A stretch of DNA of 64,000 nucleotides, taken from the NCBI GenBank assembly GCA_019057385.1, contig JAHQJS010000005.1, forward strand, positions 256,799-320,798. Direction: 5' to 3'. A program made the translations under genes and the position numbers. Shown here in pieces: positions 47,168 through 52,094 of this stretch. Each line of letters begins with the position of its first letter. Position 1 is the first letter of the stretch. The notes under the pieces are model-generated. The model saw nothing but the letters and a program-made list of their open reading frames with translations. It did no database searches and was not told where the DNA came from. This DNA is from Candidatus Borrarchaeum weybense (GTDB taxonomy: Archaea; Asgardarchaeota; Sifarchaeia; Borrarchaeales; Borrarchaeaceae).

Positions 47168-47346
47168 ATGAAAATTCTTAACTATTCTTTGGATTCATAT
47201 TGTGATTCAGATATTGCTTTGAATCATAAGCACGAATATAATAAACCGAGTATTCTTCATTATAATGTGTCGAACGTTAAATTAAAATTCTTTCCGATAG
47301 AATTCTTTAAAGATCACGTAATCGCAATGCAATAAGAGTGAATCAG

Positions 47347-47634
47347 ATGTCAACTATAAAAGTGAAATTCTTTGCACGTATCAGAGAGATAGTCAAAACA
47401 CCAAAAGCCGAGATAAGCGTAAATGATAAGATCAAATTAATCGATTTTATGAATCTATTGGCAGAGAAATATGGACCTGAATTTAGAGAATACGTGTTTA
47501 AGGCAGATCAAATTGCTAGTCATATTATGCTCATGATTAATGGAAATGCAGCGAAAAATCATGATGTATTCCTTGAAGAAAATGATACTTTGGCAATCTT
47601 ACCCCCAGTAGGTGGTGGGAACAATTATCATTAG
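47347..47634 (+). CDS. Ubiquitin-like SAMP/MoaD family protein with element-derived NNYH extension after GGG
   Basis: IKVKFFA..RE, INGN, LAILPPVGGG. Confidence 0.9.
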   Translation: MSTIKVKFFARIREIVKTPKAEISVNDKIKLIDFMNLLAEKYGPEFREYVFKADQIASHIMLMINGNAAKNHDVFLEENDTLAILPPVGGGNNYH

Positions 47635-49097
47635 TTTAATTAAACTTCATAAAACTTCATATATTTGGGCATGTATTCTTTGTTTTACGCTGATAGTCCC
47701 TTTAAGACGGACTTCGATACTTTAAAAAAGGATCTCGTAGCAAGATTATACAGGGTGTCTTAATGGGCGCGATAACCATTCCTGGGGCGATCATCACCTT
47801 AGATGATAGTGCGTTATTGGACGACCTTATGAAACGTTTCGGTAACGCCCGTAGGCGCGCTTTTTCCATGAAACGCAAAGGCTTGACGACATCCTGTATC
47901 GAAACTATTCTTCAACAAGATATTAAACTCAACGCTAGATATATTAAGGACGCTTATTACTCCATCAATAATTTACCCTGCAATACCACCTTTGGCGGCT
48001 TGAAGAACCAGCGGTTGCGCGAGAACGGCAAAATCACCAAAGAAGAATATAAAAAACGCCGAAATGCGATCCTGCTTTCACGTGGGGAGCGGTCTAAGAA
48101 TGGCAACCTTAACCTCAGAATCGACCTTGACACCATGCAACTGCGTATCAATACCTGTTGCCACGATAAGAATAAAAAGTGGATATTTGTGAGGATTTTA
48201 ATCCCGCAGAAATACCTCGACAAATATGGTAGGTATCTGGACGGTTCAAACTCTTATACCGTGCAGATTAAGCGACGCAACTTTGACCGGGGCTACGACC
48301 TGCGCATCAGCATCAAACTATCCTGTATGCTTCGGGAGTCCTCGCGGGTGATGTCTTTAGATATAAACGCAGGACATACTGATTTCGCAGTGATGAACAA
48401 AAGCGATGATATGCTTGTAGCGATAGGAAAGTTCAACCATCACGAGACACAGCATACCCGATGGGGAAAGCGCGACTGTCTGTTGAATAAATTGGTGAAC
48501 AAGATCGGCAATCTGGCACGACATTATGATGCGGAGGTAGTGGTGGGACATCTCAATACGGGAAAGTTTTGGAGTTACAACAAGAAGGCTACGCGGAAGA
48601 TCCGCCAACTGCCGCAGTATCAATTTCGGCAATTGCTGAAACGGTTGGAGTTGCAGGGAATAAAGGTGAGTGAAAGGTCGGAGGCCTATACCAGCAAGTT
48701 AGGTGACGTCATCTCTCAACTAATAGGATATGACATCCACAAATGTGCGGCGATGATGTTCGCCCTTAAGGTCATCAACTATGACTTATTCAAGCAGTTG
48801 AAGACGTTTCTCTTCGGAGTTCCGTCATATGAGGCTTATGGAAGGCGGAGGCGCGGGCAAAGGAGAGAAAGCGGGCTAACTGCCCCCATCCAGTACCAAA
48901 AGTTTCTAAAAAGTATGAAGTTCTGGATGGCGATGAACTCCTCGATAATAAATGAGGAGAGAGGCTACCTCCCGACTCCAGGTAGGGAGGGATTGTGCAA
49001 TAGGACAATGATGTCCTTTCTGGACAATTTAAAAGCGGACTTCCCATGTCACACTCTCAAGATATATTAAGAAATATGAAGATATGGTAAGATACCG
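47620..49097 (+). mobile_element. IS607-like element (tnpA deleted, tnpB-like gene retained)
   Basis: Follows TGGG; 10-bp phased repeats at both ends (AAACTTCATA left; AAGATAT-type right); DLVARLYRVS* tnpA-like remnant coupled to the tnpB ATG; removal restores the SAMP stop codon. Confidence 0.7.
47763..49070 (+). CDS. tnpB: TnpB-related protein (IS607-associated type), RuvC-II Glu absent
   Basis: FGG, SRGE.SKNGN.N.R, SLDINAGH, EAYTSK.G, H..AA. Confidence 0.8.
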   Translation: MGAITIPGAIITLDDSALLDDLMKRFGNARRRAFSMKRKGLTTSCIETILQQDIKLNARYIKDAYYSINNLPCNTTFGGLKNQRLRENGKITKEEYKKRRNAILLSRGERSKNGNLNLRIDLDTMQLRINTCCHDKNKKWIFVRILIPQKYLDKYGRYLDGSNSYTVQIKRRNFDRGYDLRISIKLSCMLRESSRVMSLDINAGHTDFAVMNKSDDMLVAIGKFNHHETQHTRWGKRDCLLNKLVNKIGNLARHYDAEVVVGHLNTGKFWSYNKKATRKIRQLPQYQFRQLLKRLELQGIKVSERSEAYTSKLGDVISQLIGYDIHKCAAMMFALKVINYDLFKQLKTFLFGVPSYEAYGRRRRGQRRESGLTAPIQYQKFLKSMKFWMAMNSSIINEERGYLPTPGREGLCNRTMMSFLDNLKADFPCHTLKIY

Positions 49098-49204
49098 TGA
49101 CCTGGTGGGTGTATCTACATACTCATTTAGTTTTTAGAAGTCTGTTAGTTCTCCCTCTATCCTTAGAGGATCCCTGTTCGTTATAAAAATAAGAGGCAAA
49201 CTAT

Positions 49205-50500
49205 TTGAAAATTTATATGGACACATACGGGTGTAGTGCAAACCAAGCAGCATCTGAGATTATGTTAGGCCTTCTTTCAAATAAATTTCAAATAATTTCA
49301 AAGAAAGATGAGGCAGATGTAATAATCATCAATTCGTGTATAGTGAAATCACCTACAGAAGCAAAAATTCTTTTTCAAATTAAAAAAATCGTGCAAGAAT
49401 ACCCTCACAAAAAACTAATTGTTGCAGGATGCATGCCTGAAGTGTATTCCATGAAAATTAGAAAAACTGCGCCAAATGCAAGTATGATTGGAATACATCA
49501 TCTTTCAGAAATTGAGAATGTCGTTGACGACACTTTACGAGGAAAACAAAGAATTGAAATTGGGCATAATTCCAGTCCAAAGTTAGGATATCCTCGAATA
49601 AGGATTGATGATAGGATTGGAATTGTACAGATTGCCCAGGGTTGTATTTCAAATTGTACTTATTGTATTGTAAAGCGAGTCATGGGCCCATTAGTATCAT
49701 ATCCTGAAGAACTGATACTTGACGAAGTAAAAAGGTGCGTTCTTCAAGGATGTAAAGAGATTTGGCTAACTGCACAAGATACAACCGCATATGGATTAGA
49801 TAGAGGCAGCACCCTACCTTCCCTTTTACAGTCGATTATGCAAATCGATGGCAATTTTATGGTCAGAGTCGGTATGATGAACCCTGCCACAGCATATCCT
49901 TTAGTAGATGACTTGATTGAGGTTTTCAAGCATTCTAAACTCTATAAATTCATACATTTACCTCTTCAATCTGGTAGCAATGCAATTTTACGTCAAATGA
50001 AAAGAAATTATACCGTTGAACAGTACTTTGAGATTATAAAAAAATTTAGAACAGTCTTCCAGGACATTACACTATCTACAGACGTTATTGTAGGATTCCC
50101 TACCGAAACCGAGGCACAATTTAATGAATCGCTTAATGTAATAACACTGCTTCAACCCAGTTTAACAAATATTTCAAAATTCGGTCCAAGGGAAAAAACA
50201 CCTGCTGCAAAATTACCCCCTCTTTCAAGTCAAACGATAAAAGACCGCTCAAGAAAAATGACAGTACTTTGCCAAAAGATAACACGTGAGAAAAACAATG
50301 AATGGATAGGAAGAGAAGAAACCATTCTAATCGTAAGTAGAGGAAAAAAAGGCGGTTTAGAAGGACGAACCTATACCTATAAACCGGTTATCATTGATAC
50401 ACGAAACCACGAACTTATTGGTAAATTCGTAAATGTGAGTATAGTTGATGCAAAATATAGTCATCTACTTGGAACTCTCACTGAGGAATTTATTCGCTGA
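49205..50500 (+). CDS. mtaB: tRNA t6A37 methylthiotransferase (MtaB/CDKAL1-like)
   Basis: TYGCSAN, NSC.VK, GC...CTYC, H.PLQSGS, GFPTET, TRAM domain. Confidence 0.9.
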   Translation: MKIYMDTYGCSANQAASEIMLGLLSNKFQIISKKDEADVIIINSCIVKSPTEAKILFQIKKIVQEYPHKKLIVAGCMPEVYSMKIRKTAPNASMIGIHHLSEIENVVDDTLRGKQRIEIGHNSSPKLGYPRIRIDDRIGIVQIAQGCISNCTYCIVKRVMGPLVSYPEELILDEVKRCVLQGCKEIWLTAQDTTAYGLDRGSTLPSLLQSIMQIDGNFMVRVGMMNPATAYPLVDDLIEVFKHSKLYKFIHLPLQSGSNAILRQMKRNYTVEQYFEIIKKFRTVFQDITLSTDVIVGFPTETEAQFNESLNVITLLQPSLTNISKFGPREKTPAAKLPPLSSQTIKDRSRKMTVLCQKITREKNNEWIGREETILIVSRGKKGGLEGRTYTYKPVIIDTRNHELIGKFVNVSIVDAKYSHLLGTLTEEFIR

Positions 50501-50742: not shown

Positions 50743-50964
50743 GTGCGAAAGGGAACCGAGAGGAGGTTGATAAGAATTAAGCTCGTTACTGTCCACCTCC
50801 CAGCTGGGTTTATCTCTGGATTAGATAGACTAGTTGAGGAGGAAAAATACCCTAATCGATCGGAAGTAATCAGAATAGCTATCCGTGATCTATTGAAAAA
50901 GGAATTATGGGAAAGTCTAGGTTTTCCAGGTTTTCCGAACCCTACTCCGTTAGAAATAAGATGA
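50743..50964 (+). CDS. cdrS: Ribbon-helix-helix regulator (CdrS-like)
   Basis: VTVHLP..LD.LV....YPNRSEVIR.AIRDLL, directly upstream of ftsZ. Confidence 0.8.
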   Translation: MRKGTERRLIRIKLVTVHLPAGFISGLDRLVEEEKYPNRSEVIRIAIRDLLKKELWESLGFPGFPNPTPLEIR

Positions 50965-51002
50965 ATTTTTATTGACATTAAGGTGACATGGAGATCATGC
51001 CA

Positions 51003-52094
51003 ATGAAATTATTAATTGAGAATGCAAAGAAGCATATACTTGAAACAAAAGATCTACACAATGGCTTAAGAGAGCCTGGTCGTGCAAGGATTGTAGTTAT
51101 GGGATGTGGAGGCGGAGGATGTAATACCGTAGATCGTTTAATGAAATTAGGTATTGAAGGTGCAGAATGTATTGCTGTGAATACAGATCAACAGCATCTT
51201 AGTCAAGTGCAAGCAAATCAACATATCCTTATAGGGCGGCATATTACACGCGGCTTAGGGGCAGGAGGATATCCTGAAATTGGAGCTGCGTCAGCAGAAG
51301 AGTCTAGAAGAGAATTAACGGAATTTTTAAGAGATGCAGATCTGGTTTTTGTTTCAGCTGGTCTAGGTGGAGGTACTGGTACGGGAGCCGCACCTACTGT
51401 TGCTGAAATTGCTAAAGAGAATGATGCAATAGTGGTAGGTGTTGTTACTACACCATTTGAAGTAGAACGTGCACGGAATGAAAAGGCACGAGAAGGATTA
51501 AGAAATCTACGAAGACACGCTGATACCGTTATTGTGATTGACAATAATAAACTACTTGATATTGCGCCTCAACTTCCAATTGATGCAGCATTTAGCGTTG
51601 CTGATGAAGTTTTAGCTCGCTTTGTAAAGGGCATTACAGAGACCATATCATTGCCGAGCCTCATTAATCTTGATTATGCTGATGTCCGAACCGTTATGAC
51701 GGATGGGGGCGTCGCAATGGTCGGAGTTGGAGAATCAGGAGAAAAGAATCGAGTAGAAGACGCTGTTAATGCAGCATTAAAGTGTCCGCTGCTTGAGTTG
51801 GATATCACTGGTGCTACCGCTGCCTTGATTCACGTGAGCGGTGGAACTGATATGACGCTTGAGGAGGCAACAAAAGCTGCAGATATCGTTGCAAAAAGAT
51901 TAGCGAGCAATGCAATGGTGATTTGGGGTGCACGTCAAGATCCTGAACTGAGAGATATGATTCGAGTTATGTTAATTGTCACTGGTGTACAGAGCCCTCA
52001 AGTATTTGGACCTCAAGAAAACCATTTCTGGAATCAAAAAGGACCAAGAGATTTTTCTGATTTTGATTTGCCGGGCGATATTCCAAAACTTTAG
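51003..52094 (+). CDS. ftsZ: Cell division protein FtsZ
   Basis: GCGGGGCN, NTD, GLGAGG.PE, GLGGGTGTG, NLDYAD. Confidence 0.97.
   Translation: MKLLIENAKKHILETKDLHNGLREPGRARIVVMGCGGGGCNTVDRLMKLGIEGAECIAVNTDQQHLSQVQANQHILIGRHITRGLGAGGYPEIGAASAEESRRELTEFLRDADLVFVSAGLGGGTGTGAAPTVAEIAKENDAIVVGVVTTPFEVERARNEKAREGLRNLRRHADTVIVIDNNKLLDIAPQLPIDAAFSVADEVLARFVKGITETISLPSLINLDYADVRTVMTDGGVAMVGVGESGEKNRVEDAVNAALKCPLLELDITGATAALIHVSGGTDMTLEEATKAADIVAKRLASNAMVIWGARQDPELRDMIRVMLIVTGVQSPQVFGPQENHFWNQKGPRDFSDFDLPGDIPKL

Follow-up and report, generated by a model that had tools for sequence, protein, structure and literature searches.

A probable tnpA-less IS607-family insertion at the glycine codons of a ubiquitin-like modifier gene in Candidatus Borrarchaeum weybense

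The window, the whole 64,000-nucleotide stretch of the Candidatus Borrarchaeum weybense genome analysed here, contains a gene for a ubiquitin-like small archaeal modifier protein (SAMP) whose terminal glycine codons abut a mobile element with a single tnpB-like gene. The MoaD/SAMP1-like gene, as it presently reads, extends over 47338..47634 (likely ATG at 47347) and, like all features of the window described below, lies on the plus strand. Its product is a beta-grasp protein of the ThiS/MoaD fold (Pfam ThiS, 42.4 bits, 1.1e-10) that passes the cut-off of the NCBIfam model moaD_arch (TIGR01687; 56.6 bits, cut-off 49.5) and scores under that of the SAMP1 equivalog model (55.1 bits, cut-off 60); orthologues in the congeneric Candidatus Borrarchaeum yapensis (G004) and in G001, a further genome of the genus, are 85% and 78% identical, respectively. 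The Gly codons GGT GGT GGG (47611-19) continue into an element-encoded tail, AAC AAT TAT CAT TAG, and the protein ends in PPVGGG-NNYH, as an earlier note on this DNA had read it. The element, 1490 bp long if counted from behind the left GG core to the last base of the right one (47616..49105), carries an open reading frame (ORF) of 435 amino acids (47763..49070), and to its right lies TGT ATC TAC ATA CTC ATT TAG (49110..49130), a displaced native SAMP tail (CIYILI and stop), ahead of a radical-SAM methylthiotransferase gene (UPF0004, Radical_SAM and TRAM domains; 49205..50500). In our judgement the locus probably records the insertion of a non-autonomous, tnpA-less IS607 element at the DNA motif AGGTGG of the SAMP gene end, a near-neutral event in which one tail was swapped for another.

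The bounds of the element emerge from comparison of its copies. At its edges the G+C content rises from ~0.32 to ~0.46 from 47620 and drops back after ~49100. The genome that contains the window (8 contigs, 4.18 Mb, 100% complete) holds two further copies, 80-82% identical, and more were collected from G004, from other genomes and from metagenome contigs, scans of genome contigs and of metagenome contigs giving 1 and 2 loci, respectively. These copies are alignable from AACA(A/G)TT to GTGACC(T/A)GG and diverge outside, which in the window corresponds to a span from 47620 to 49105. A 7-bp repeat, TGGTGGG, is present at both junctions as microhomology (left copy 47613..47619, right copy 49103..49109) and thus the exact crossover cannot be placed within it; the element-free alleles described below fix the ends to within this microhomology. 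The junction repeats have lengths of 7, 8, 5, 4, 3 and 1, and a fixed target-site duplication was rejected for this reason. The left end (47620..47700) opens with AACAATT (family consensus AACAGTT), followed by two AACTTCATA units at a spacing of 10 bp (47643-51 and 47653-61); both this phasing and the left-flank TGGG (47616-19) had been recognized in the earlier note. The right end (49060..49105) consists of three 10-bp phased units (ATATATTAAG, AATATGAAG and ATATGGTAAG) and the family-wide terminus GTGACCTGG, with the right GG core at 49104-05. The subterminal units lie ~25 nt inside the ends, those on the right being inverted with respect to those on the left (I1: 47645-64 with 49062-81, 80% complementary). 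AACAATT and GTGACCTGG themselves are not inverted copies of each other, and there are no terminal inverted repeats. Two far-end junctions had previously been suggested, and GG+TAA at 49086-90 and G+TGA at 49097-100 do exist, but neither 49086/87 nor 49097 is the junction: the copies are conserved through GTGACC(T/A)GG to 49105, and both candidates lie inside the conserved right end. No relative or contig showed the empty joints predicted from them, GGTGGTGGG+TGACCT or +TAAGAT. Elsewhere in the genome a lone fragment of a tnpB 5' end (L004; contig 4, 706228-706356, minus strand), 56% identical over 43 amino acids and containing one TGA, is probably a decayed fourth copy.

The state of the SAMP gene before the insertion can be read from element-free alleles. 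In G004 the codons GGT GGT GGG are followed by AAC ATC TTA ATA CTC ACT TAG, giving a protein that ends in GGG-NILILT, and the same methylthiotransferase gene comes directly after. A metagenome contig from X4, a run of the study to which the probable source sample belongs, connects 47624 with 49122 via seven letters of its own and encodes GGG-NNLILI, and the element-free allele of G001 ends in SGGGM. Run X5 contains both flanks at ~95% identity and covers little of the element, but no contig spans the site, and X5 was therefore not counted as an element-free allele. The element-free alleles have 18-21 extra bases ahead of the terminal stop, and the bases to the right of the window element, read on from GGG, encode CIYILI and a stop, collinear with the element-free tails. 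Thus, from the element-free alleles and the displaced CIYILI, the SAMP had a six-codon tail before the insertion. A free C-terminal Gly-Gly is absent from the primary product of the window gene (NNYH) and equally from those of the element-free orthologues (NILILT, NNLILI and M), and the pro-protein state is thus the original one and does not stem from the insertion.

The earlier note had proposed a different history, in which an IS607 element inserted precisely at the boundary of the final Gly codon and the stop codon, either inactivating the modifier or converting it into a pro-protein, with excision acting as a reversible switch. It is true that the frame runs from GGG into NNYH and a stop, that GG+TAA and G+TGA occur near the far end, and that the family is indeed IS607. 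The right end, however, is at 49105 by copy comparison, three element-free alleles have 1-6 codons after GGG, and the genome yielded no IS607 TnpA, its only gene with a Resolvase domain not encoding one. The Gly codon and the stop were thus already separated by a tail (NILILT, NNLILI, M or the displaced CIYILI), and the enzyme that would switch the modifier back on is lacking; we regard this history as scarcely tenable.

Two of the three genomic copies, those at the SAMP gene and at iorA, have element-free counterparts elsewhere, and both joins are scarless. In G002 the element-free iorA allele reads ACAGGTGGT+GTTCAATAATGG, iorA ending in TGGVQ and iorB overlapping it at TAATG, while at the occupied locus the element lies between two TGGT copies and iorA ends in TGG and a stop. 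This second copy (L002:1276-2744; contig 4, ~1186410-1187875) cuts VQ and the stop off the iorA-like gene and parts it from the translationally coupled iorB.

Tails after Gly-Gly occur in 7 of 18 SAMP homologues of the phylum (1-14 extra residues); the other 11 stop right after GG. Tailed Asgard MoaD/SAMP homologues are found at L014, L016, L017, L018 and L022, with ends such as GGTDSNPFAGMLR and GGIDPKPLPVFRQNCE, each before a stop. Modifiers with a C-terminal extension include QbsE, which goes with QbsD in Pseudomonas, CysO with Mec+ in Mycobacterium, and the eukaryotic ubiquitin precursors. Like these, the window SAMP is a beta-grasp modifier whose post-Gly-Gly residues would have to be removed before adenylation, and the genome has JAMM/Prok-JAB genes (contig 6 at 385337-385669; contig 4 at 125070-125306). 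In contrast with these systems, no protease gene adjoins the window SAMP and no Prok-JAB gene was found near it, and the tails are hydrophobic, variable and 1-6 residues long. As the native tails vary so much among close relatives, maturation would depend little on tail sequence, and the variable tails of the Asgard orthologues point to a maturation step that is open to test.

It could be argued that the insertion amounts to a knock-out, in which NNYH cannot be removed and this SAMP copy is dead or dying, with other MoaD/ThiS paralogues compensating. The tail sequence has been wholly changed, three other ThiS/MoaD-like genes in the genome stop right after GG, and the downstream methylthiotransferase gene has been uncoupled from the SAMP gene. 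It should be emphasized, however, that the SAMP frame is intact, at 85% identity to the G004 orthologue, and that the great variability of the native tails (NILILT, NNLILI, CIYILI and M) suggests processing that is not very tail-specific. A knock-out, while the main rival, therefore appears unlikely, and the insertion was probably near-neutral, as any tail would have to be cleaved off or disregarded in either case.

Why the element lies where it does is answered by its DNA target. The Val-Gly-Gly codons of the SAMP gene make AGGTGG (47610..47615), a motif resembling a target or transposon-adjacent motif (TAM), within which the GG crossover core is presumed to be 47614-15. (A/G)GG(A/T)GG stands 3-6 nt before AACAGTT at seven of eight independent left junctions (AGGAGG at four, AGGTGG at two, GGGAGG at one), and the eighth, AGGACG, is one base off; with a background of 5.4e-4 per position in the genome, this enrichment is far beyond chance. 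The right ends stop in CC(A/T)GG, with the exception of one copy associated with ANME archaea (CCAAG), and GG is contained in each of the junction microhomologies TGGTGGG, TGGT, AGG, AGGAT and GGTTGTAA. The element is thus found at the SAMP Gly-Gly and at the Thr-Gly-Gly end of iorA because the Gly codons GGT GGT GGG spell its DNA target. Since the motif accounts for the position, modifier biology is not needed as a cause; a striking site has an ordinary explanation and the proposed genetic switch falls away. The ORF upstream of a further copy, L097, ends in SGVGG but does not look like a gene for a ubiquitin-like protein. A candidate left junction ahead of the G036 tnpB start, AAGGAGG+AGTGCC, was dropped, as the related G144 locus shows a tnpA 3' end and a tnpB ribosome site there.

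The affiliation of the element rests on a relative that has a transposase. Of 400 genomes of the phylum searched with a profile, 12 contained the family. In G144 a TnpB of 45% identity (BLASTP E 9e-121) is encoded directly behind a frameshifted IS607 tnpA, one fragment of which scores 107.5 bits with the NCBIfam model 'IS607 family transposase' (NF033518, cut-off 110) and 70 bits with Pfam Resolvase. The G144 element has GGGAGG as its left flank, AACAGTT as its left-end start and GGGACCAGG as its right end, and its left end is alignable with the Borrarchaeum left ends over ~55 nt. This relative, with its IS607 tnpA and the common left-end start, leads us to consider the window element a tnpA-less IS607 derivative. 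The element contains no serine recombinase, tnpB being its only ORF, and hence the earlier description of it as IS607-like stands with regard to the GG junctions, the lack of target duplication and terminal inverted repeats, the phased repeats and the link through G144, but not with regard to a recombinase. An IS607 TnpA is a serine transposase that combines an N-terminal MerR-like helix-turn-helix with a Resolvase catalytic domain. A PF00239 search of the complete genome identified no such protein, the single match being a 258-amino-acid Resolvase+Recombinase protein without an N-terminal helix-turn-helix. As no IS607 transposase was found, excision is unlikely and the element is probably stuck in place. 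A complete IS607 arrangement is present in G001 (L100:1-2046, contig 178), where a 187-amino-acid TnpA (NF033518, 199 bits) precedes a TnpB that has a zinc finger, belongs to another clade and is truncated by the contig edge; the left end of this IS607 has no evident motif in common with the window element.

IS607 elements have GG at their termini and target, lack terminal inverted repeats and target-site duplications, and contain short repeated subterminal motifs (PMC6188088). In an IS607 IStron the target or TAM, TGGG, resembles the right-end TCGG and yet is discriminated from it, with cleavage of the donor joint (10.1101/2023.11.20.567912). The window element shares with this family (IS607, IS1535, ISC1926 and CboIStron, with TnpA_S, TnpB and omega RNA) the GG at termini and target, the absence of target duplication and terminal inverted repeats, the short phased subterminal repeats and a tnpB whose 3' end overlaps an RNA scaffold, and the homologous G144 element has an IS607 tnpA; GGWGG and CCWGG in the window family stand in the same arrangement as TGGG and TCGG in CboIStron. 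It differs in having no tnpA, with none of IS607 type in the genome, in its longer target motif, AGGWGG, and variable spacer of 3-6 nt between GG and the left-end start, in a TnpB with no zinc finger and with His in RuvC-III, and in an RNA that has no Rfam match.

An alternative affiliation is with the IS1341-type solo-tnpB elements (an IS200/IS605 subgroup in ISfinder), in which case the single Y1 TnpA of the genome would mobilise the element in single-stranded form and insert it 3' of a fixed tetra- or pentanucleotide. Like the window element, these have a single tnpB ORF between their ends, are multi-copy and are presumably moved in trans; the genome does have one IS605 with a Y1 TnpA, and mobilization in trans is common for solo TnpBs (PMC10691335). 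Elements driven by Y1 enzymes, however, have hairpin ends and a fixed target of 4-5 nt, whereas here both ends and junctions conform to the GG-core type of IS607: the gap between the flank motif and the left-end start varies from 3 to 6 nt, GG is present at both junctions, and the ends contain phased repeats instead of the usual hairpins. Furthermore, a homologous element has an IS607 tnpA, and the IS605 of the genome is unrelated, its TnpB belonging to a different, zinc-finger-bearing clade. Mobilization by the Y1 enzyme is thus very improbable.

The sole NCBIfam match of the tnpB product is TIGR01766 'TnpB-related' (33 bits, cut-off 32), a local copy of Pfam returned no family for the ORF, and a 20-row profile matched no chain in the PDB; PF27229 is annotated, from precomputed matches, on homologues. 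The AlphaFold2 (AF2) model has a predicted local distance difference test (pLDDT) score of 75, with residues 353-435 under 50 and predicted to be disordered. The top Foldseek matches of this model are Cas12f, Cas12k, ISFba1 TnpB and ISDra2 TnpB (best E 8e-10; TM ~0.5 for the Cas12f chain-A matches), and on the strength of the model the protein is assigned the bilobed Cas12f/TnpB fold with a split RuvC. D200, E307, D324 and H326 are invariant in 20 sequences down to 45% identity. The RuvC-III motif, D324-x-H326-K-C-A-A, has His at the position of the canonical Asp, and the zinc finger is absent, only 11 residues and no CxxC pairs separating SEAYTSK (RuvC-II) from YDIHK (RuvC-III). By its sequence this His pattern matches that of the rearranged, presumed-active RIIIr-4 group (PMC10691335). 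The window copy has a unique 18-nt insert at 48994-49011, which adds CNRTMM to the disordered C-terminus.

With the RIIIr-4 or RHH(MazE)-TnpB clade (Altae-Tran et al. 2023, PMC10691335) the window TnpB has in common the lack of a C4 zinc finger, the invariant His at the RuvC-III Asp position and a mostly archaeal distribution, an assignment that is based on described features only. The homologues of ~50% identity in ANME-1 have, like members of that clade, a small ribbon-helix-helix (RHH)-like ORF just upstream and virus- or plasmid-like contexts, whereas the copies in Borrarchaeum lack such a gene and act like insertion sequences. At these ANME-1-associated loci (L081-L092) the RHH-like ORF has 55-63 amino acids and lies amid many small ORFs; an IS605 (Y1 TnpA and a TnpB-like gene) is adjacent, and the contexts have a virus- or plasmid-like look. 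It could be proposed on this basis that the window protein is a domesticated or nuclease-dead TnpB, either TldR-like or of the RHH-TnpB toxin-antitoxin type, which uses a flank-derived guide to regulate the SAMP/methylthiotransferase locus. The His in place of the canonical RuvC-III Asp, the missing zinc finger and the pairing of ANME-1 relatives with an RHH-like ORF, as in the RHH/MazE-TnpB clade (PMC10691335), are compatible with such a role. However, D200, E307, D324 and H326 are retained across all 20 sequences, and conserved rearrangements imply activity, as has been argued for such proteins (PMC10691335). The element is moreover multi-copy, has intact transposon ends, occurs at unrelated loci and, in the window, has no RHH partner, all of which make domestication improbable.

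The 3' end of tnpB also contains a conserved, covarying RNA structure (48871..49036), read as the scaffold of an omega RNA (reRNA). It comprises 36 pairs, 21 of which have compensatory changes, and 96% of all cells are paired, compared with 36-50% when the pairing partners are shifted along and 82% after shuffling of columns. The RNA coincides with the DNA that codes for the disordered C-terminus, and the 18-nt insert of the window copy falls in a loop. Rfam searches at E up to 5 gave chance matches only, no family (for example, RAGATH-18) fitting the RNA. From its sequence, the scaffold would run from this structure to the terminus GTGACCWGG, and TGGG (49106-09) together with the displaced tail would then form the predicted guide, starting at 49106, by analogy with IS607 TnpB (10.1101/2023.11.20.567912).

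The most likely course of events is the following. An IS607-family element lost tnpA and kept tnpB, the overlapping omega-RNA scaffold and both ends. Its integration would have occurred by GG-core recombination at AGGTGG, spelled by the Val-Gly-Gly codons of a SAMP gene whose product, in this genus, natively bears a short tail behind GGG that evolves fast. The outcome was the exchange of a tail of six residues (CIYILI) for one of four (NNYH), the SAMP frame being otherwise intact. On excision the scarless joint would read AGGTGG+TGGGTGTATC, and the junction of the circular double-stranded intermediate, through which TnpA_S moves IS607 elements, would read GACCTGG+TGGGAACAATT. Several points weigh against this account. 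The GG crossover is deduced from the anatomy of the junctions, and the spacer of 3-6 nt between GG and AACAGTT is constant neither in sequence nor in length. Three of the six fully bounded copies have a spacer that repeats the first bases of the right flank (TGGG/TGGG, TTGTAA/TTGTAA and ATTT/ATGT), namely at window 47616-47619 / 49106-49109 and at the L097 and L056 junctions; the others do not, and a plain 2-bp crossover would not predict such repeats. The tnpA of G144 is frameshifted, and a modifier that carries NNYH could be impaired. Finally, the G004 and X4 tails start with AACA, as does the left end, whereas the displaced tail of the window starts with TGTA; we take the shared AACA to be probably chance in a fast-evolving stretch. 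What is gained from an insertion of this kind is a well-bounded TnpB without a zinc finger, a covarying RNA scaffold, a predicted six-base TAM, AGGWGG, and a tie to IS607 through a relative that bears tnpA.

A broader and more tentative possibility, which we would not yet favour, is that two circumstances meet at this locus, an IS607 lineage tuned to AGGWGG and Asgard MoaD/SAMP-type modifiers that are often pro-proteins with disposable tails. If this were the case, AGGWGG, being both the Shine-Dalgarno core and a spelling of Gly-Gly, would home the element to the very ends and starts of genes. Little harm would result, since the right end CCAGG joined to the TGA of a flank rebuilds AGGTGA, a ribosome-binding site for the next gene. 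Disposable tails would make such modifier genes tolerant landing sites, and ubiquitin-like C-terminal maturation in Asgard archaea would be implied.

Downstream of the element, the methylthiotransferase gene, which in G004 starts ~25 nt after the SAMP stop, lies 1.5 kb further away in the window. Just upstream of it is a stretch of 53 nt (49146-49198) with a TATA-like TTATAAAAATA at ~49170; the stretch is not part of the element; it is absent in G004 and in the X4 allele and has a counterpart in G001. Further along, a small RHH-like ORF (50743-50964) lies directly upstream of ftsZ (50988-52094) and, judged by eye, recalls the archaeal CdrS/CopG-type cell-division regulators.

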